Shown here: positions 3,377-63,363 of the stretch, piece by piece
How the letters are laid out: each line of letters opens with the position of its first letter
Numbering within the stretch: position 1 is the first letter of the stretch
Assembly: GCA_964544335.1 (NCBI GenBank)
Contig: CAZJAJ010000002.1
Location: forward strand, 78,109 to 142,108
DNA length: 64,000 bases
Direction of reading: 5' to 3'
Source: an uncultured Methanosarcinales archaeon
GTDB lineage: Archaea; Nanobdellota; Nanobdellia; Woesearchaeales; JABIAG01
The notes under the pieces: generated by a model
The model's database searches: none
What the model saw: only the letters and a program-made list of their open reading frames with translations
Told to the model about the DNA's origin: nothing
Position numbers and translations under genes: made by a program

Positions 3377-5086
3377 ATGACAAAATTCATAGTTGTAGTC
3401 GGCGGAGTTATTAGCGGTGTTGGAAAAGGCGTATCCACAGCATCACTAGGACGAATTCTTCAAGAGTACGGATATTCAGTAACTGCAGTAAAAATAGATC
3501 CGTATTTGAACTTTGACGCAGGAACCATGAGGCCAACAGAGCACGGTGAAGTGTGGGTAACCTCTGATGGTGGAGAAATTGATCAAGACCTTGGTAACTA
3601 CGAACGATTCCTAGGAAAACTTATTCCACGAACACACAACATCACAACAGGTCAAGTATACAATCGAGTAATAGAAAAAGAACGAAAAGGAGAATACCTT
3701 GGAAAAACCGTTCAAATCTTTCCACACATCACTAATGAAGTAAAAGAGAGGATCAAAAAAGCAGCAGAAGGACACGACATCTGTCTTATTGAAGTGGGTG
3801 GAACCATAGGTGACTATGAAAACGTACCATTTCTCTTTGCAGCAAAAGGACTAGAGCGAGAATTTGGAAAAGACAGCGTACTCTATATCATGGTAACCTA
3901 CCTGCTCGTACCACGTCACATGGCTGAAATGAAAACAAAGCCAACACAACAAGCAATTAGAATGCTTGGAGAAAGTGCAGGAATATTCCCTGACTTCATT
4001 TTCTGTAGAGGACCTGCACCACTTGATGACATTAGAAGAGAAAAAATAGAAGTATACGCAAACATTCCATCAGAAAATATCATCTCAGAACCCGACATTG
4101 ATACCATCTATAGAATTCCACTTGATCTTGAAAAAGAAGAAATCGGATTAAAAGTACTCAAATTACTCAAACTTGAACCAAAGAAAGAACCAAAATGGGA
4201 CAATTGGGAAAAACTGGTGAATGCAATCGTTGCACCAAAACAAAAAATCAAAATTGCCATGATTGGAAAATACATCTCAACGGGTGATTTCACACTAGAA
4301 GATTCCTATGTCTCAGTAAATCAAGCACTCATACATGCAGGAGCAAATCTTGACACATCAGTACAAATTGACTGGATTGATGCAGCATCACTCGAAGAAA
4401 ATCCAGCAGCACTCATGCAACTAAAAGACTACCAAGGCGTACTTGTACCTGGTGGTTTTGGAAATTCTGGTGTTGAAGGAAAAATAAAAGCAATCAAATA
4501 CGCAAGAGAAAATGACATCCCATTCCTTGGTCTCTGCTATGGACTACAATTATCACTCATTGAATATGCAAGAAACGTATGTGGTCTCAAAGATGCACAC
4601 ACCACAGAAGTTGATGAACACGCAGAACACAAAGTCATTGACATCTTGCCAAGCCAGCGAGCACTCATGGAAAAAGGAGACTATGGAAACACTATGAGAC
4701 TTGGTGCATACGCAGCAGGACTAGATCCACTCTCAAAAACATACGCACTCTACAAAGAATGCAACCGTCTACAATCTGATCAAAAAGAATTCCTTACACT
4801 AACAGAATCACGAGTAGGAACAACGCCAGTAGAACACGCAGTAGTTGAGCGGCACAGACATCGATTTGAAGTAAGCCCAGTGTACGTAGATAAAATACAG
4901 GCAGCAGGAATGCACTTTCCTGGATTTCACAACAGAGACGATGGAACAAATCTCGTAGAATTCATTGAAATTCCAAATCACCCATTCTTTATGGCAACAC
5001 AAGCACACCCTGAATTCAAATCACGATTAGATGATCCAGCACCACTATTCTATGGATTTGTACGTGCATGTATCAAGAAACTCTAA
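3377..5086 (+). CDS. pyrG: CTP synthase
   Basis: 569 aa. N-terminal synthetase domain (VVGGVISGVGKGVSTASLG) and C-terminal class-I glutamine amidotransferase domain (GLCYGLQ, HPEF). Confidence 0.95.
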   Translation: MTKFIVVVGGVISGVGKGVSTASLGRILQEYGYSVTAVKIDPYLNFDAGTMRPTEHGEVWVTSDGGEIDQDLGNYERFLGKLIPRTHNITTGQVYNRVIEKERKGEYLGKTVQIFPHITNEVKERIKKAAEGHDICLIEVGGTIGDYENVPFLFAAKGLEREFGKDSVLYIMVTYLLVPRHMAEMKTKPTQQAIRMLGESAGIFPDFIFCRGPAPLDDIRREKIEVYANIPSENIISEPDIDTIYRIPLDLEKEEIGLKVLKLLKLEPKKEPKWDNWEKLVNAIVAPKQKIKIAMIGKYISTGDFTLEDSYVSVNQALIHAGANLDTSVQIDWIDAASLEENPAALMQLKDYQGVLVPGGFGNSGVEGKIKAIKYARENDIPFLGLCYGLQLSLIEYARNVCGLKDAHTTEVDEHAEHKVIDILPSQRALMEKGDYGNTMRLGAYAAGLDPLSKTYALYKECNRLQSDQKEFLTLTESRVGTTPVEHAVVERHRHRFEVSPVYVDKIQAAGMHFPGFHNRDDGTNLVEFIEIPNHPFFMATQAHPEFKSRLDDPAPLFYGFVRACIKKL

Positions 5087-23517: not shown

Positions 23518-25370
23518 ATGAGCTTTTTCTCTCTACCAAAAATATTACTAATGGTCATATTGCTTAGTAGTTTGGTAGTTGCAGGAGTAACCTTTACTGG
23601 TGGGCCTGGACTTAATGCAACATACGTATCACCAACACCAGCAAATGCAACAGAATCAACAACTCGCTATTTTGAAGTAAACGTCTCACTTGACAATAAT
23701 AACCTCAATCAAGTGTTCTATGATTGGAACGGTACAAACTACACTATATACAATTCATCACTCATACTGATGCTCAACTTTGATAACACATCGGTTGAAG
23801 ATGTGTCATTGCTTGCAAATAATGTTACAGAATCAACCACAGCACTAATAACACAAGGAAAATACAAACAAGCAAGAGGTTTTAACGGAGGAAATAGTTT
23901 CATTCGTGTTCATATGCACAAGCATTCAACTTTGAAACAGGTGCATTTACCATTGCAGCATGGATTCTCACAAACTCTACAGGCATCCAAACTATTTTCA
24001 GTACCGATCAAGCAGGAACATCACAAGATATTAAATTCTTTATTCCAAACACAGATATTCTCTCTTGTCATCTCAATGATGTAGGAATACGAACTGATAA
24101 CGCACTCAATACCTCTGAGTTTAACTATGTGGTTTGTACGCGTAATGCAGGAGGAACATTGAGTATGTATGTAAATGGACAACTCATTAATTCAACAACA
24201 AGAGCAGTTAACGTTTCAAATAGTACCGATATATTCATTGGGATGAATAACATTACATTTGCAAATCGATACTTTAGCGGAGTAATAGATGAACTTCGAG
24301 TATGGAATGCAAGTCTATCTCATGAAGAAATTCAACAACAATATCTCTCTAATCTCAATAAACTCAATAGCACACAGTGGTACTTCTACGCAAACCAAAC
24401 ACGTAATGCAACAGATACACTCACCAATGGAACATACACGTTTAATGTATACACACAAAACCAAAACACCAGTTATGCATCCACAGGTGATAGAATCTAT
24501 GTAGTAGATGGTGCAGATCCAAATGTAACACTCAATTTACCGCTTGGAAATTATTCAAATACTACAGCAAATCCTGCAACTGTTGTGTTTAATTGTTCTG
24601 CAACAGATAACAACACGCTTACAAATATTACACTATACATAACTGCAAGTGACAATACATCATTTGCAGCAGACCAAACAGCAACAGTAAACGGATCAAA
24701 TGCATCAGCACAATGGAATAAGTCAGTAAGTAATGGAGACTACACCTGGAATTGCCTTGCAACTGACACTGCAGGAAACTCTGCATTCGCATCAGCAAAT
24801 AGATCCTTCTCAGTAGATTACACCGCACCTGCAGAAGAAACTACGACCACCACTACAACCACTACAAGTGGTAGAAATTCAGATTCATCACGGCGTGTGA
24901 GAACAGATACCATTACCAATTACCTAACAGATGGAGTATCTCAATTCACCTTAATTGAAGACAACAGTGTAATCTTTACCACTGATGGAACTGAGCACAA
25001 AATTACTGCAACAGAAACAAACACAGATGAAGCAACGGTGGTAGTGAATGGAAAATCATACACCATGGAAGAAGAAACTACCATTGACTTTGGAGCATTC
25101 ACACTCAGTGCAGTAGATCTAAGAACAGCATCTGTTGTCCTTATTGTTCAACTACCACAAGAAGATGATGTGGAAGAGATTATGGAAGAAACCGATGACA
25201 TGGAAGATGATGAATCTGACATGGATGGTGACATCGACACAGAAACAATAGAAGATGAACAACAAGATGAAGAAGGTTCATCCCTTGCATCAAAAGCACT
25301 TGCAACACTCGTACTCCTTGGTGGCATCTGGTATCTCTACAGTGAAGCAATCATACGATTTCTCATTTAA
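23518..25370 (+). pseudogene. large secreted, surface-anchored concanavalin-A-like (LamG) lectin/glucanase-domain protein, apparently frameshifted
   Basis: Signal peptide at 23518. The LamG consensus (GAFTIAAWIL...NAGGTLSMYVNGQLI...GVIDELRVWN) continues in the frame of the 24129 ORF without a Met, so the reading frame shifts near 23900-23925. Also has many N-glycosylation sequons, a poly-Thr linker, an acidic tract and a C-terminal TM anchor. Confidence 0.5.
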
Positions 25371-25382
25371 TTCTTGAAAAAA

Positions 25383-25457
25383 ATGGGCTCTACGGGATTC
25401 GAACCCGCGGCCTAAAGGTTAAGAGCCTTTCGCTCTGACCAGACTGAGCTAAGAGCC
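25383..25457 (-). tRNA. tRNA-Lys (anticodon CTT)
   Basis: The reverse complement folds as GGGCTCT / GCTC-AGTCTGGTC-AGAGC / AAAGG-CTCTTAA-CCTTT / AGGCC / GCGGG-TTCGAAT-CCCGT / AGAGCCC-A. Canonical 75-nt cloverleaf. Confidence 0.85.
25445..25457. repeat. direct repeat copy 1 (tRNA-Lys 5' end), duplicated at 25525-25537
   Basis: gagctaagagccc at 25445-25457 versus gtgctaagagccc at 25525-25537. The two copies flank a ~65-nt two-hairpin element. Confidence 0.6.
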
Positions 25458-25524
25458 CATCACTCATGGGCTTGAGCAAAGCGAAACCCATTTCGATATG
25501 AAGTGACGAAACAGTTCGACTGTG
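25458..25524. mobile_element. ~65-nt two-hairpin insertion-like element (copy at tRNA-Lys), homologous to the element after srp54
   Basis: Hairpin ATGGGC...AGCAAAGCG...CCCAT, then TTTCG, then hairpin ACAGTTCGACTGT. It shares AGCAAAGCG, TTTCG and ACAGT(T)CGA(A)ACTGT with 44317-44385. It is flanked by direct repeats of the tRNA 5' end. Confidence 0.4.
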
Positions 25525-25600
25525 CTAAGAGCCCGCTCAATGTAAACAGGGTGGGAAGATGTGTTTTAAAAATGTATTTTTTTAGAATATTCATCTAACT

Positions 25601-26347
25601 TTACTCTTCCAAAATAGCAGGAACTTCAATATAACAATCACCATGTCTATCTACAATGCCTGAAGCATACTCATCTGATCGTTTTCTAATAACTCGTCTA
25701 TCCTCGCCGAGCATACGTGGAACAACAAACCCAAACATTACATAATTAAGAAGCGTAGTGCTCATATCAAGGCCCTCTCTTGCATGCATAAGTGTATCAC
25801 GAGCCGATGAATATCTCACCCCACACCGATATAATAAATCTCTACTAAACCCCTTCACTCCTTGTTCTCTATAAGAATACAACTCATTAATATGAGACAA
25901 CCTATGAAACAAATTACCGCTCCCTGAAGGTTCTGTACTCATCATAATCAAAAAAGGATCAGCTAAACAATATGGTTCACTTTGCATAACACTCTCAAAC
26001 CGCTCTCGTTCATCTGGAAAATGCATTACAGCAAGAGTATTCATAAAATCAAATAACACCACACTCGTATAGAAATCCTTTCGAAGGTGTTCTTTATCTT
26101 TATTTTGACAAGAAAGTTCATACGTAAACGAACGTATCTTCTCACTAATTTTCTGTTCTGCAAGAGCAGGTAAAGAAAAATCAATTTCCTCATGCAGTGC
26201 ATGCACATATCGTGCAAGTGACCAGTACGGGATGCAGGTACACTCTTGCCTAAGTCCCAAATGAAGATCCAGTGATAGGTTTTGCCTTCCCATGCAGACT
26301 GTAAGCACATCTAGAATTAAAATGTTATGAATAAAACAGACAGACAC
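25601..26347 (-). CDS. hypothetical protein
   Basis: 248-aa ORF with no recognisable motif. The start is possibly further downstream (MGRQNLS). Confidence 0.35.
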   Translation of the reverse strand: MSVCFIHNILILDVLTVCMGRQNLSLDLHLGLRQECTCIPYWSLARYVHALHEEIDFSLPALAEQKISEKIRSFTYELSCQNKDKEHLRKDFYTSVVLFDFMNTLAVMHFPDERERFESVMQSEPYCLADPFLIMMSTEPSGSGNLFHRLSHINELYSYREQGVKGFSRDLLYRCGVRYSSARDTLMHAREGLDMSTTLLNYVMFGFVVPRMLGEDRRVIRKRSDEYASGIVDRHGDCYIEVPAILEE

Positions 26348-39763: not shown

Positions 39764-41680
39764 ATGGTACAAATAACACTTCCAGACGGAACCAAAAAAG
39801 ACTTTGAAAGTCCTCTAACAGGGATGCAAGTAGCACGTGACATCGGTGAAGGCCTTGCTAGGGCAGCACTAGCAATCAAAGTAAACGGTACCACTACTGA
39901 CCTGTGGAGTGAAATTGTAGAAGATGCAAACGTAGAAATTCTTACCTTTAAACAAGATGAAGGAAAACAAGTATTTTGGCACTCCTCTGCTCACCTCATG
40001 GCTATGGCAATGAAAGCAATCTGGCCAGACATTAAATTAACCATCGGTCCTGCAATCGAAGAAGGATTTTATTACGACGTATACAAAAAAGAACCATTCA
40101 AACCAGAAGACCTTGAGCAAATAGAAGCAAAGATGAAAGAATTTGTCAAAAAAGATCTTCCATTTACCAGAGAAACCATTACTTACGAAAAGGCAAAAGA
40201 ACTCTTCAAAGACAACACCTTCAAACTAGAACTCATTGAAGAACATAAAGATGATAGTCTTTCAATCTACAAAAATGAATCAGATTTTCTCGACCTCTGT
40301 AGTGGACCACACATCCCATCTACAGGACGAATCAAAGCATTCAAACTCACCAAAATGTCAAGCGCATACTGGAGAGGAGATGCAGAAAGAGAAGAACTTC
40401 AACGAGTATATGGGGTAAGCTTCCCTGATAAAAAAGAACTACAGGCACATCTTGAAATGCTTGAAGAAAGAAAAAAATACGATCACAGAAAAATTGGAAA
40501 AGATCTAGACCTCTTTGAAGTTGACGAAGACATCGGTCCAGGACTCGTACTCTGGCTTCCAAAAGGAAACAGACTCAAAGAAAATCTAGAAAACTGGGCA
40601 AAAACAACTGAAGAAAAAGAAGGCTACCAACGAGTAACCACGCCAATTATCACAAAAGAAAATTTATTCTTAACATCAGAACACTTGCCGCACTACGCAG
40701 ACAGCATGTTCAAACCCATGGAAGTAGAAGGTGAACCCTACTACATCAAACCCATGAACTGTCCATTCCACCACAAAGTCTTTGCAGCACGAACACGATC
40801 ATACAAAGATCTTCCACTACGTCTTGCAGAATACGGATGGTGTCACAGATACGAACAATCAGGCGCACTCATGGGACTCATGCGAGTACGTGGCATGCAA
40901 ATGAATGACGCACACATCTATTGTACCAAAGAGCAAGCAGTAGATGAATTCGTAAAAGTAATCAAACTGCATGAATACTACTACAAAATACTTGGCATCA
41001 CTGAATACTGGATGGAGCTTGCACTGCGAAACCCAGAAAATGACAAATACCACGGCGATGAAGAAATGTGGAAAGAAGCAGAAGATCTCATGAAACAAGC
41101 AATGGACAAATCAGGTGTAAAATACATTGTTGAAGAAGACGGTGCTGCATTCTACGGTCCAAAAATTGATTTCCAAATTAAATCAGTATCAGGAAGAACC
41201 TTTACTGCATCAACCAATCAAATTGATCTCTTCATGGGTAAAAAGTTCGGTCTAAAATACACGGGCGAAGATGGGAAAGAACACGTCCCAGTAATCATCC
41301 ACCGAGCACCACTAGGAACACATGAACGATTCATCGGATTCCTTCTTGAACACTTCAAAGGACGACTTCCGCTCTGGCTCAATCCAAATCAAGTAACCAT
41401 CCTCCCAATTGCAGACCGATTTGCAGACTACGCACACACCGTCGCAGAATCACTACGAGAAGAAGGCATCGTCGTTGATGTAGATGAACGTCAAGAATCC
41501 ATTAACAAAAAAGTTCGTGACGCACAACTACAACAATACAACTACATTCTTGTAGTGGGCGAAAAGGAAATCGAAGATCAAACCGTCACCGTGCGAACAC
41601 GTGAGGGTGATGTACAAGGCGCAATAAAAACACAAGAGTTCAAAGAGCGCCTAGCATCAGAACTAAAAAATAAAGAATAA
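39764..41680 (+). CDS. thrS: threonyl-tRNA synthetase (bacterial/eukaryotic-type with N-terminal TGS and editing domains)
   Basis: 638 aa. N-terminal TGS domain MVQITLPDG, class-II motifs, zinc-ligand HxxxH/C context, C-terminal anticodon-binding domain. Confidence 0.9.
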   Translation: MVQITLPDGTKKDFESPLTGMQVARDIGEGLARAALAIKVNGTTTDLWSEIVEDANVEILTFKQDEGKQVFWHSSAHLMAMAMKAIWPDIKLTIGPAIEEGFYYDVYKKEPFKPEDLEQIEAKMKEFVKKDLPFTRETITYEKAKELFKDNTFKLELIEEHKDDSLSIYKNESDFLDLCSGPHIPSTGRIKAFKLTKMSSAYWRGDAEREELQRVYGVSFPDKKELQAHLEMLEERKKYDHRKIGKDLDLFEVDEDIGPGLVLWLPKGNRLKENLENWAKTTEEKEGYQRVTTPIITKENLFLTSEHLPHYADSMFKPMEVEGEPYYIKPMNCPFHHKVFAARTRSYKDLPLRLAEYGWCHRYEQSGALMGLMRVRGMQMNDAHIYCTKEQAVDEFVKVIKLHEYYYKILGITEYWMELALRNPENDKYHGDEEMWKEAEDLMKQAMDKSGVKYIVEEDGAAFYGPKIDFQIKSVSGRTFTASTNQIDLFMGKKFGLKYTGEDGKEHVPVIIHRAPLGTHERFIGFLLEHFKGRLPLWLNPNQVTILPIADRFADYAHTVAESLREEGIVVDVDERQESINKKVRDAQLQQYNYILVVGEKEIEDQTVTVRTREGDVQGAIKTQEFKERLASELKNKE

Positions 41681-42976: not shown

Positions 42977-44320
42977 ATGGTCTTAGATTCACTAGGAGAG
43001 AAGTTAAAAAACACCCTTGGAAAGATTTCCAAAGCCCTTTTTGTAGATGAAAAACTCCTCGATGAAATTCTACGAGACATCCAGCGAGCACTATTGCAAG
43101 CAGATGTCAACGTACAACTCGTATTCAAACTCACAAAATCCATCAAAGAACGAGCACAAAAAGAAAACATTCCAGGACTAGATAAAAAAGAACATCTCAT
43201 CAAAATAGTCTATGAAGAACTCGTACAATTTCTTGGTGGAGAGAAAAAAGAACCTGAAATTAACAAAAAGCCAACCAAACTCATGCTCGTTGGTCTCTTT
43301 GGTGCAGGAAAAACTACTACTTCTGGTAAAATTGCAAAATACTACACCAAACGTGGAAAAAAAGTTGCACTCGTAGGACTTGATGTATGGCGACCTGCTG
43401 CAATGAAGCAGTTAGAACAAGTAGGTAAAACTATTGGTGTTGATACCTATGTCAATCAAGAAGAAAAAGATCCCATTCAACTCTGGAATAATGTCAAAGA
43501 CCAACTAGGCAACTATGATTTAGTGATCATTGACACCGCAGGACGAGACGCACTCTCAGAAGAACTCATCACAGAAATAGAAGAGGTTACAAAAACCATA
43601 AGTCCTGATGAAAAAATTCTCGTACTGCAAGCAGACATTGGTCAAGCAGCACAAAAGCAAGCAGAACAATTCCACAAATCCTGTGAAGTAACTGGTGTTA
43701 TTATCTCAAAAATGGATGGTTCAGCAAAAGGTGGTGGAGCACTCACTGCATGCGCAGTAACTGGAGCGCCAATCATGTTTATTGGGGTAGGTGAACGTCC
43801 AGATGACTTTGAATCATTTAATCCAAAAGGATTCGTATCACGAATGCTTGGCATGGGAGACCTTGATGCACTGCTAGAAAAAGCAGAACTTGCAATGAAA
43901 GGCATGGACAATGAAGACATGCAAAAGAAACTCATGAAAGGTGACTTTGACCTCAATGATTTGTATGAACAAATGTCTGCCATGAAAAAAATGGGATCAC
44001 TCTCAAAAATAATGGACCTCCTTCCAGGAATGGGCGGAATGAAAATCCCAAAAGATGCACTCAAAGTACAAGATGAAAAACTCACCAAATGGAAATTCAT
44101 CATAGATTCCTGCACACCATTTGAGCGTGCAAATCCAGATCAAATGAGTGGATCACGAGTTGAGCGAATTGCAAAAGGCTCAGGAACCACAGTACAACAA
44201 GTACGAGAACTCCTCAAACAATACAAAATGTCTAAAAAACTCATGAAAACCATGGGCGGCTCTGAAAAGAAAATGCAGAAAATGATGGCAAAAATGCAAG
44301 GTGGCGGACTGCCTAGGTAA
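42977..44320 (+). CDS. srp54: signal recognition particle protein SRP54
   Basis: N domain, G domain (GLFGAGKTTT, DTAGR, ISKMDG) and Met-rich M domain. 447 aa. Confidence 0.95.
   Translation: MVLDSLGEKLKNTLGKISKALFVDEKLLDEILRDIQRALLQADVNVQLVFKLTKSIKERAQKENIPGLDKKEHLIKIVYEELVQFLGGEKKEPEINKKPTKLMLVGLFGAGKTTTSGKIAKYYTKRGKKVALVGLDVWRPAAMKQLEQVGKTIGVDTYVNQEEKDPIQLWNNVKDQLGNYDLVIIDTAGRDALSEELITEIEEVTKTISPDEKILVLQADIGQAAQKQAEQFHKSCEVTGVIISKMDGSAKGGGALTACAVTGAPIMFIGVGERPDDFESFNPKGFVSRMLGMGDLDALLEKAELAMKGMDNEDMQKKLMKGDFDLNDLYEQMSAMKKMGSLSKIMDLLPGMGGMKIPKDALKVQDEKLTKWKFIIDSCTPFERANPDQMSGSRVERIAKGSGTTVQQVRELLKQYKMSKKLMKTMGGSEKKMQKMMAKMQGGGLPR
44300..44316. repeat. direct repeat copy 1 (srp54 3' end), duplicated at 44386-44402
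   Basis: ggtggcggactgcctag is present twice. The second copy would still encode MHGGGLPR-stop in frame. Confidence 0.7.
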
Positions 44321-44385
44321 TGTTCATCAGACTAAGCAAAGCGCATGTCTGATTTCGTAGCCTACAGTCGAAACTGTAGATGCAT
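44317..44385. mobile_element. ~65-nt two-hairpin insertion-like element (copy at srp54), homologous to the element at tRNA-Lys
   Basis: Hairpin ATCAGAC...AGCAAAGCG...GTCTGAT, then TTTCG, then hairpin CTACAGTCGAAACTGTAG. It is flanked by 17-nt direct repeats that duplicate the srp54 3' end. Confidence 0.4.
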
Positions 44386-44434
44386 GGTGGCGGACTGCCT
44401 AGATGATTATTCTAAAAAATAACTCTCAAAATAC

Positions 44435-60821: not shown

Positions 60822-60869
60822 TCACCAAAAGTCCTAAAACGTTTTAAATCAATTAATTCTTACCATCTC

Positions 60870-61601
60870 ATGAAAAAAGGTGATAGAAAAACACTCTTTG
60901 GTACCTTTATATTAGTATTCTTTATCTTATTGCTCTACAACTCAATGGTGGGTTCTCAATGGGGCTTTGATAGCATCATGTCCATTATTGTCCTTGTGAT
61001 TTTCTATTACCTTGATGACTATCTTGATATCACCTATGCAGAGTTCATCGTAGGAATTATAGCACTCACTCTGCACAACCTTGGATCATTTGATTTCTAT
61101 GCATTTCAAATGGGATTCATCTATTATGATAACATTGTGCACATGGTATCCTCTCTTGCACTGGGCATGGGATTCTTTAGAGTATTCTACACCCGGTTCC
61201 ACATCGAAAACAGAGAACAACTCATTGCACTATTCTTAATGTCAATAGGTCTTGTTTCTTTACTGGGTATAGGCATAGAAACCACTGAATACGCAGGTCA
61301 TGTGTTCCTCGGAGAAGGTGATGGAATCTTCTTCACGGGAGTTGGGGACGCAAACAAACTTGGCGATCCACTCGAACAATACAAAGATGCACTTGAAGAT
61401 CTCATGTGGAACTTCTTTGGAGCACTCATTGGTGCAACCATAACACTACTTAGACTTGATACTTCTTCAGAAGGGAGGAAGTCAAAGCACCCAGAGCGAT
61501 TACCACCCAAAACACGAGATCAGAAATTAACCCCATACCTAAAAGAATTAAGTTCACAACCAGCAAAACAACCACAAAGATCGAAAGTACTTTCTTCATA
61601 A
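60870..61601 (+). CDS. membrane protein, unknown function
   Basis: 243 aa, ~6 TM helices, basic C-terminal tail. Confidence 0.4.
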   Translation: MKKGDRKTLFGTFILVFFILLLYNSMVGSQWGFDSIMSIIVLVIFYYLDDYLDITYAEFIVGIIALTLHNLGSFDFYAFQMGFIYYDNIVHMVSSLALGMGFFRVFYTRFHIENREQLIALFLMSIGLVSLLGIGIETTEYAGHVFLGEGDGIFFTGVGDANKLGDPLEQYKDALEDLMWNFFGALIGATITLLRLDTSSEGRKSKHPERLPPKTRDQKLTPYLKELSSQPAKQPQRSKVLSS

Positions 61602-62327
61602 GGGAAGCGCCTCATCATTCTTTTTTAATGCAAACGTGTGTTCACCACTAATGCTTATGCCTGCATATCTTCCTTGCTCTAAACAACGAGTGTATGTTCT
61701 ACAAGAAACATCTTTTACTGTTGCAATGATCTGATCATGTGGTGCAAAACGTGTAAGTCTATGCAAACCATGTCTACTCAAAAAAAGACCTATCTTCTCA
61801 AGTAATTGTTTACTTTGTGATTGTTGATCAAGGTATCTCATGTGGCAATTAAGTGTGCTTCCTTTTCCAACAAAAAGATGTTCCCTATTATTATACAAAT
61901 AGTGGGTATCAAAGAGTTCTTTTTCTACAACCAACGCATCGCCATCTCGAAGTGCACCAAATTCAATCTGTGGATACTCTTCAGCAAGCTCTAGCATAGT
62001 TGCAAGATCAAACAAATCGCTTCTTGCTCGAAGCATTTTCATATGAAGTCCCGTTTTATCACTTCTTCTTCCCACTTGCATAGATACAAATCCTTCAAGA
62101 AAATACTCACCCATATCAAACGTTCTATAATATGTTGCCTCTGCATGATTGCAGCGAGGACAAGAATTATCACTAAAATGACCCATCTCATCACATAAAA
62201 ATCGAAGACCCTTATACTGATGCGCACTACTCACCTCTTTATCTGAAAAACCATGAATCAATCCAAGAAGTTCATCTCTATAGAAGTTTCCAGTATCATA
62301 TCGCCTAGTAGGCAGCGTAGTGCTCAT
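61596..62327 (-). CDS. hypothetical Cys/His-rich protein
   Basis: 243 aa. CDEMGHFSDNSCPRCNH cluster. No family recognised. Confidence 0.35.
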   Translation of the reverse strand: MSTTLPTRRYDTGNFYRDELLGLIHGFSDKEVSSAHQYKGLRFLCDEMGHFSDNSCPRCNHAEATYYRTFDMGEYFLEGFVSMQVGRRSDKTGLHMKMLRARSDLFDLATMLELAEEYPQIEFGALRDGDALVVEKELFDTHYLYNNREHLFVGKGSTLNCHMRYLDQQSQSKQLLEKIGLFLSRHGLHRLTRFAPHDQIIATVKDVSCRTYTRCLEQGRYAGISISGEHTFALKKNDEALPL

Positions 62328-62369
62328 AGAAGAAGCTAACGTAGTGAAATATAAAAATCTGTTGTATGA

Positions 62370-63332
62370 TTACAGAAGATCTCTAATAGAAGCATCACAT
62401 CGATAGGTAGCATCAACAACTGCAGGAATATCCTCAAACCGCTCTACATTCCCGGGCGTTACCCACACAGGAATCCCTTTAAGTGCAACTTCGCGAATAG
62501 TATCCCATCCACAATCGTCATATTCTCTAAATCGTCTTCGAACACCCTGAGGATCATCATCTTTTCGATGTGTAAGTGGTTCTTCACATGTTCTGCAAAG
62601 ACCTTGTGGGATTCCCTCTTGAGTAAATCCAACACCAAGTGGTTGTCGCTCTATTTCAGTTGCACGTGCATTATAATCAAGATTACATGGTTTGCATTGC
62701 ATTCGGCCAACAGTTCGATTAAAAATATCATTAGGGTCAGCATGCACCAGCAACATTCCCTCAACAGGATGCCCAATATGTTTGAGGTAGTCAAATACAG
62801 GTTCAACTTGATCAGGTGATCGAAGCCACCCATCTCCAACGTACCCCATATGACCTGCACAAGGATGAATAGCACTCGTAAGGTGATACATCAGTGTATT
62901 GACAGGTGCATATAGTTTTAATTCACTATACAAGACAGCATTTCTGTCCTCTTTGTGTAATCTAAATGATTCTCCAAATGTTCTTTGAGAATACTCTTCA
63001 AGAAATGCTTCAACTGCATCTTCATTTGCAAGAAGATTTTTCAGAGTATCTTGATTTTCATCTTGATGCGCATGAATAAAATGATTAAGTACTTTTCGCG
63101 TATTCCCATTCAGTCTTTCACCAATACCTCTAAACAAAGCACCACTCTCTTTCCAAAGAAGATTTTGTCTCTTTGCAGTAACTTTAGCTCGTGCTTTTTT
63201 ACCACTGCCAGAATAACCCGTTACAATAATGCTCTTATTCTCAGGAAGCGTAGAAAGATCTGTATCATTAAAGACAATTCCTTCAAGTTGAGGATGTACA
63301 TCTTTTCCATGAATTTCATGAATATTGCTCAT
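62370..63332 (-). CDS. hypothetical P-loop NTPase with C-terminal Cys-rich (zinc-ribbon-like) region
   Basis: Walker-A-like IIVTGYSGSGKK. Later CKPC...CRTC pairs. 320 aa. Confidence 0.35.
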   Translation of the reverse strand: MSNIHEIHGKDVHPQLEGIVFNDTDLSTLPENKSIIVTGYSGSGKKARAKVTAKRQNLLWKESGALFRGIGERLNGNTRKVLNHFIHAHQDENQDTLKNLLANEDAVEAFLEEYSQRTFGESFRLHKEDRNAVLYSELKLYAPVNTLMYHLTSAIHPCAGHMGYVGDGWLRSPDQVEPVFDYLKHIGHPVEGMLLVHADPNDIFNRTVGRMQCKPCNLDYNARATEIERQPLGVGFTQEGIPQGLCRTCEEPLTHRKDDDPQGVRRRFREYDDCGWDTIREVALKGIPVWVTPGNVERFEDIPAVVDATYRCDASIRDLL

Positions 63333-63363
63333 TGTAATAGTGACTTATCGACCATTTAAAAAG

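Follow-up and report, generated by a model that had tools for sequence, protein, structure and literature searches.

Upstream of the tRNA-Lys(CTT) gene in the 64,000-nucleotide stretch of DNA analyzed here (the window), two hairpins are followed by what looks like a second copy of the tRNA 5′ end, which raises the question of whether a DNA element has inserted at the boundary of this gene and, if so, what kind of element it is. The original prediction placed the tRNA on the minus strand at 25383-25457. ARAGORN and Rfam (RF00005, 73.8 bits) retain the strand and move the intact gene to 25384-25458, where it aligns with the tRNA-Lys(CTT) genes of relatives. Its first 17 nt, GGGCTCTTAGCTCAGTC (25458-25442, minus strand; tRNA positions 1-17), are repeated 76 nt upstream as GGGCTCTTAGCACAGTC (25534-25518, minus strand), an orphan copy that has no counterpart in relatives. 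The duplication of the tRNA 5′ end, first given as 11-17 nt, can be refined to 17 nt; 11 nt of it are exact, and the single mismatch, T12 to A, falls at position 6 when counting starts from hairpin 2. Two matches to the tRNA 5′ end were obtained in none of 100 shuffles of the window. The left junction of the insert falls precisely between positions -1 and +1 of the tRNA.

The sequence on the far side of the orphan copy (25535-25600, minus strand) aligns with the promoter found directly 5′ of tRNA-Lys in a sister species (contigs L063 and L068) and represents the original tRNA-Lys promoter region. Within it, the TATA-like TTTTAAAA (25570-25563, minus strand) is separated by about 30 nt from the orphan copy downstream of it and by about 105 nt from the start of the actual tRNA; the alignment agrees with the earlier suggestion that the box is positioned for the upstream copy. 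No TATA-like box at the right distance was seen inside the insert. Together, the duplication and the element have shifted the promoter 76 nt away from the tRNA. An assembly artifact is unlikely, because the identical arrangement is present in a separate Logan assembly of run SRR15635848 (L015), possibly built from the same reads. We conclude that the upstream 5′ copy and the two-hairpin insert are confirmed as real.

The 59 nt between the two tRNA copies (25459-25517) match the covariance model of an element family with 59.4 bits (E = 4e-14). Read on the plus strand, they begin with a left extension, ATCACTC (25459-25465), a part that varies in length and sequence among family members, followed by hairpin 1 (25466-25491; stem ATGGG/CCCAT, loop CTTGAGCAAAGCGAAA, apical GC-AAA-GC), which matches the covariance model, and the spacer TTCGATAT (25492-25499; TTCG conserved, TAGC in other copies). 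Hairpin 2, GAAGTGA-CGAA-ACAGTTC (25500-25517), is degenerate, with five of seven pairs, and its last base is the end of the element. Two hairpins had been predicted correctly, but the second had been drawn as ACAGTTCGACTGT (25511-25523), six bases of which are taken from the duplicated tRNA segment; that hairpin is discarded in favor of the family homologue at 25500-25517.

A second copy in the window, on the plus strand, has entered the 3′ end of srp54 (42977-44320). Here, a 63-nt insert (44317-44379; covariance model match, DNA fold z = -3.1) follows the gene-attached ATGCAAGGTGGCGGACTGCCTAG (44294-44316), and the same 23 nt are repeated behind it as an orphan srp54 3′ end (44380-44402) with one mismatch, the last 17 nt being exact. 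The original last-codon base and TGA stop (44403-44406) come next. The insert consists of a left extension, GTAATGTTC, and a core (44326-44379) that scores 79.5 bits against the family model. Both srp54 3′ ends, attached and orphan, encode ...GGGLPR-stop, and the present stop codon, TAA, is supplied by the left extension. The tRNA and srp54 inserts both carry the conserved TTTCG and a second 7-bp hairpin with loop CGAA, and their hairpin 1 stems are wholly different (ATGGG/CCCAT in the tRNA insert and ATCAGAC/GTCTGAT in the srp54 insert) around the conserved loop AGCAAAGCG. The covariance model matches both inserts and the stems covary, in agreement with the prediction that they belong to one family. 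Beyond these two copies, the model found nothing above 7 bits in the 64-kb window; a BLAST match at 41012-41035 falls within a long ORF and is attributed to chance.

The family covariance model, built from six sequences, also matches contigs L051/L054, L063, L064, L068 and L069 and, more weakly, L082 and L084. This small, non-coding, dispersed element of about 55-70 nt thus occupies six independent loci in five lineages, with ~10 copies in ~0.6 Mb of Woesearchaeota DNA. The loci are the tRNA-Lys 5′ end in the window (25442-25534; duplication 17 nt), the srp54 3′ end in the window (44294-44402; 23 nt), the tRNA-Lys 3′ end in L063/L068 (27 nt), the 3′ end of a NOL1/NOP2/Sun methylase gene in L051/L054, on a contig of 27% GC (about 36 nt), the eRF1 3′ end in L084 (2809-2952; 36 nt, 94% identical) and an srp54 3′ end in L082 (11304-11504; 72 nt, 85% identical), where hairpin 1 is poorly preserved. 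All six share one layout: intact gene end, variable left extension, hairpin 1, spacer, hairpin 2 and orphan gene end. The orphan starts right after the last base of hairpin 2 in the five loci with a well-formed hairpin 2, and 2-4 nt later in L084; the left junctions lie at the gene terminus or up to 37 nt past it. The window srp54 and L063 tRNA-Lys copies have 25 of 25 nt in common across spacer and hairpin 2. Joint folding and covariation analysis of the copies, proposed with the original prediction, found that 93.6% of cells pair across the six sequences and that both-sided changes occur in 5 of 16 pairs, in both stems; the covariation score of the observed alignment was reached by none of 500 shuffles. 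The hairpin 1 stem of the tRNA copy covaries with ATCAGAC/GTCTGAT, ATACG/CGTAT and ATATGAC/GTCATAT. An element acting at the DNA level is favored because orientation relative to the host gene varies (antisense to the window tRNA-Lys; sense to srp54, the L063 tRNA, eRF1 and the methylase gene), because the three copies of a syntenic chromosome region run in the same chromosomal direction, and because the apical hairpin 1 loop reads AAA or TTT depending on the copy, an inversion of the small palindrome.

When 185,579 species genomes, the window's own genome not among them, were scanned with a strict motif, there were four matches, all bacterial and about the number expected by chance. A relaxed scan of metagenome contigs gave 43 matches, the real ones being only L051/L054; the relaxed motif was itself too narrow, and copies with AGCTTTGCG or CTCG were missed. 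Viral contigs held nothing real for the element motif or a putative attP, and three viral matches to the 18-nt hairpin 2 palindrome were rejected, hairpin 1 being missing from each. Elements were not found in more distant GatA and SRP54 neighborhoods (L062, L073-L078), where a 16-bit covariance match within the GatA coding sequence (L073 6713-6765, also L074 and L075) is probably spurious.

Relatives of the window allow the insertion to be compared with empty sites. Source-named homologues of SRP54 and GatA are labelled Woesearchaeota or Nanoarchaeota, and the contigs derive from marine metagenomes. The sister species (L063/L068) has an SRP54 85% identical to that of the window and is collinear with it over tens of kilobases. 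At its tRNA-Lys(CTT) gene (L063 5381-5471), which contains a 15-nt intron, the promoter is immediately 5′ and a second 5′ copy is absent, and its srp54 is followed by just 21 nt before the next gene, an empty site. In the outgroup L073, the promoter likewise lies directly upstream of tRNA-Lys(CTT) (3879-3953), and the element is absent at both ends of the gene. The recommended search for empty sites was therefore successful at srp54 (sister species) and at the tRNA 5′ end (sister species and L073). An upstream 5′ copy in relatives that lack the hairpin insert, which would speak against insertion, was seen in neither of these two. Because the relatives without the insert are also without the upstream 5′ copy, and because the promoter aligns, the insertion reading stands; these sequence comparisons support the original proposal that an element inserted and duplicated the tRNA 5′ end. 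As separate observations, the tRNA-Lys(CTT) gene with its promoter is inverted in the window relative to both L063 and L073, the sister intron follows the anticodon and is absent from the window and L073, and in the window extra surface-protein genes (23518-25370) lie between NrdR and the tRNA.

The sister species carries the element at the other end of the same gene. Its tRNA-Lys 3′ end (L063 5459-5853) is occupied by four tandem 94-nt units with 97% identity, in each of which the element is joined to a repeat of the final 27 nt of tRNA plus trailer. Contig L068, from another sample of the sister species, has two units there (2455-2660), and contigs L064 (1-170) and L069 (1-70) end inside the tandem array. 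The window is without a 3′ array at tRNA-Lys, and the sites are reciprocally empty: srp54 and the tRNA 5′ end in the sister species, the tRNA 3′ end in the window. One internal array repeat in L068/L064 reads GTAGAGCCCA, as does the window's tRNA, the local form being GTAGGGCCCA. The tRNA 5′ end, read as its reverse complement AAGAGCCCAT, is similar to the tRNA 3′ end, GTAGAGCCCAT, where the element sits in the sister species, and this likeness may explain the choice of a 5′ end.

What the sequences show is that the element inserts with duplication, has spread to gene ends unrelated to one another, leaves sites reciprocally empty and varies in the number of its tandem copies. To account for these features, we propose, with about even confidence, that the insert is a small non-autonomous mobile DNA that was moved in trans and integrated through staggered cuts at the tRNA 5′ boundary, duplicating the first 17 bp of the gene. 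The two-hairpin element would have entered exactly at the tRNA-Lys(CTT) 5′ boundary, leaving one 17-bp copy on the intact tRNA and the other as an orphan beside the old promoter. As the element is non-coding, we infer that a trans-acting enzyme encoded elsewhere moves it. This enzyme would join the element to widely staggered target cuts, and once the single-stranded gaps were filled, the target would be duplicated over a long stretch whose length differs from locus to locus (17-72 bp). In compact genomes, a gene would stay intact only when the duplication spans its terminus, and we propose that surviving copies lie at gene ends because other insertions would break the gene. Reuse or expansion of a site would give rise to tandem arrays.

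Some observations sit less easily with staggered cuts. The duplication measures 23 nt at the window srp54 and 27 nt in L063 even though the two copies are closely related, and an enzyme of fixed geometry would not be expected to vary duplication length between close copies. The left end is inconstant in length and sequence, and terminal inverted repeats are absent: the left ends ATCACTC..., GTAATGTTC... and TTCTTAATATTTC... do not match the reverse complement of the right ends, which are formed by the hairpin 2 3′ arm. No transposase, integrase, Cas1 or recombinase was found among the 30 window ORFs scanned against Pfam, several of which had no match of any kind. Copies are also few, ~10 in the ~0.6 Mb of Woesearchaeota DNA, and the strict genome scan did not rise above chance.

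The leading alternative, possible but less probable than the proposal above, is a miniature integrative element in which the hairpin core together with a gene-end copy integrates by a site-specific or homologous crossover within the shared segment, in the manner of larger integrative elements at tRNA genes. On this reading the repeats on either side would be attL and attR, not products of fill-in, and the hairpins would bind a trans-acting recombinase. Orphan and attached copies differ at position 6 after hairpin 2 in four loci (25518-25525; 44380-44387; L051 2156-2164; L063 5545-5552), with positions 3 and 8 differing as well in two of the four, and a short mismatched stretch beside hairpin 2 is followed by an exact core of 11, 17 or 19 nt. 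Differences in coding targets are compatible with function: the two L051 ends read EGFFIAKLVKE-stop and EGYFIAKITKN-stop, where three changes are synonymous and the conserved part has F replaced by Y; the L084 copies show a synonymous GCG/GCT change and A to T in the last residue; and those of L082 show stop-to-stop and synonymous changes. Clustered differences with synonymous or conservative coding changes fit att-like or homology-based integration better than staggered cuts. The same reading gains from repeat lengths that vary from 17 to 72 nt, from the orientation rule kept in 6 of 6 loci, from the targeting of srp54 in two species (the sampling covers srp54 and GatA neighborhoods only), from the tandem arrays and from the non-local internal repeat in L068/L064. 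In the window, each of the two changes is A to T and gives rise to a small palindrome (ACAGT-TCG-ACTGT; ATGCAT).

Against a crossover, a double-stranded circle of 75-130 bp would be very small for recombinase synapsis, and closely related cores occur at unrelated targets, so that a fresh homology segment would be required at every change of target. The orphan in the window copies the 5′ region of the tRNA (D arm) and not a 3′-end att, and this duplication is therefore taken to have arisen locally. No integrase was present among the ORFs scanned, and neither the motif nor a putative attP was found in any viral contig searched. The L082 copies have diverged by ~11% where they are coding and by ~24% in the duplicated flank (manual count), a ratio of about 1:2 that fits local duplication followed by neutral decay. 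Staggered cuts with gap filling explain new targets easily and accommodate this ratio; as the window orphan is clearly a local copy and near-identical cores stand at unrelated targets, we rank this mechanism slightly above att-like or homology-based integration.

For the tRNA itself, the insertion would have consequences at the level of the transcript. Transcription would still start from the old promoter, with a predicted primary 5′ end some 6 nt upstream of 25534 and the mature end at 25458. The tRNA would acquire a leader of about 82 nt that includes the orphan copy along with the element in antisense and is removed by 5′ processing; the ~80-nt leader and the need for RNase P envisaged in the original prediction would follow. 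The predicted minimum-energy fold of such a pre-tRNA (25384-25540, minus strand, 157 nt) has z = -2.7. In this predicted fold, the orphan GGGCUCU pairs with the 3′ strand of the acceptor, and the true tRNA 5′ end is held by the insert in a 7-bp hairpin, AGCCCAU/AUGGGCU, an arrangement that could compete with correct tRNA maturation.

The pairing of the orphan GGGCUCU with the acceptor strand would also suit a functional RNA: a leader with a role in regulating or processing tRNA-Lys, a gene for a small RNA, or a bulge-helix-bulge intron whose excision joins the 5′ copy to the tRNA body. Non-canonical pre-tRNA introns can, according to one report, be cut by archaeal splicing endonucleases of the (alpha-beta)2 and epsilon2 types (PMC5829648). 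We nevertheless consider a functional RNA improbable. The element is antisense to the window tRNA-Lys and sense elsewhere, leaving no one RNA common to all copies, no Rfam family matches it even at E up to 10, and relatives do without the insert. A bulge-helix-bulge (two 3-nt bulges separated by a 4-bp helix at the exon-intron borders of the transcribed strand) is absent from the predicted fold and by inspection, and none can be drawn, the sole self-complementary 4-mer of the repeat (GGCU, with wobble pairs) having no flanking helix. Readings of the element as a hammerhead, C/D-box or tRNA-like RNA failed by inspection and against Rfam. Least credible of all is a decayed tandem tRNA duplication with a degenerate tRNA pseudogene as its upstream unit: the 76-nt spacing is close to one tRNA length and the upstream unit starts with GGGCT and contains AAGCCCAT, which resembles a tRNA 3′ end, but this reading is contradicted because the insert belongs to the element family, its 59 nt being homologous to srp54, eRF1 and methylase inserts unrelated to tRNAs, and neither ARAGORN nor Rfam detects a tRNA-like signal in the upstream unit, only the true tRNA scoring.

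Comparison with known systems sets the element apart from each of them. MITEs are similarly small, non-coding, present in several copies, presumably moved in trans and flanked by direct repeats of the target, but they are defined by terminal inverted repeats and short target duplications of fixed length, whereas the element has neither (17-72 nt). Short palindrome elements of the REP/BIME type and those derived from IS200/IS605 (HUH transposases) insert beside a fixed tetra- or pentanucleotide with no target duplication. They share with the element short intergenic hairpins just after genes and a possible strand-specific orientation; here, duplications are present, and the six left junctions (ending in GAGCCC, CCTAG, AAGAG, TTATT, GAAAA and CTTAAA) have no common motif. 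Integrative elements that replace gene ends include tRNA-targeting islands and, in E. coli, e14 and phage 21 at icd. Like the element, they show a duplicated gene end, an orphan beyond the insert, differences that are often silent, and tandem accretion at tRNA genes. The direct repeats found here, with exact cores of 11-19 nt and mismatches beside hairpin 2, are compatible with att sites or with decayed duplications. However, such integrative elements span kilobases and encode an integrase, while here the whole insert is ~60 nt and one lies at a tRNA 5′ end; no tyrosine integrase was found inside or beside the element, the neighbors including no Pfam integrase.

Casposons, which are several kilobases long and encode Cas1 and a family B polymerase, come closest in outcome. 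They have terminal inverted repeats and a DNA polymerase gene, target the 3′ ends of tRNA and aEF-2 genes, form tandem arrays that share the duplication, and generate target duplications of 14 bp, up to 35 bp in a distant member (PMC4779613). The resemblance to the element, in outcome only, lies in the long target duplication, the tRNA and protein-gene 3′-end targets and the tandem arrays. In contrast to casposons, the element has neither coding capacity nor inverted termini in its ~60 nt, close copies differ in the length of their duplication, and no Cas1 occurs among the 30 window ORFs scanned. The element thus fails the defining tests of MITEs, casposons, IS200/IS605-type elements, integrase islands, bulge-helix-bulge introns and tRNA pseudogenes. 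A literature search returned nothing resembling it in DPANN archaea, and the two-hairpin family is apparently undescribed; it is possibly new among small non-autonomous mobile elements, as is, possibly, its mechanism of integration. More tentatively, it could represent a new class of archaeal mobile DNA that is defined by hairpins, lacks terminal inverted repeats and on integration always copies a variable stretch of the adjacent gene terminus, the copy beginning directly at the 3′ end of hairpin 2, by means of an enzyme not yet linked to transposition in DPANN archaea. Candidates would be an integrase of the casposase type that works on a minimal substrate, or copying by a polymerase primed from a hairpin.

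The ORF beside tRNA-Lys (25601-26347, minus strand) was considered as a recombinase and rejected, as it belongs to no Pfam family. It has five matches, itself included, among 1.8 billion representative proteins, and its single-sequence structure model is unusable (pLDDT 37). The corresponding ORF of the sister species (L063 5849-6466, minus strand) is 44% identical and has an in-frame stop, compared with ~85% identity for SRP54 and GatA. On these sequence grounds, the ORF appears to be a fast-evolving, lineage-specific neighbor of the tRNA-Lys/element locus in both species. Elsewhere in the window (60822-63344), three consecutive ORFs of 259, 257 and 324 aa are without a Pfam match.

DPANN archaea have tiny, gene-dense genomes, and to our knowledge few mobile elements have been described in them. 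The two-hairpin family shows how mobile DNA can persist in such genomes: it is located at gene termini and leaves an intact copy of the gene. Its precise right boundary, long variable duplications and tandem arrays turn the chemistry of integration into a tractable question, for which casposon and CRISPR-spacer integration are the closest functional parallel. Element arrays may break assemblies, as contigs L064 and L069 end inside one. For annotation, the inserts yield orphan fragments of gene ends, new stop codons, as at srp54, and displaced promoters, as at tRNA-Lys.
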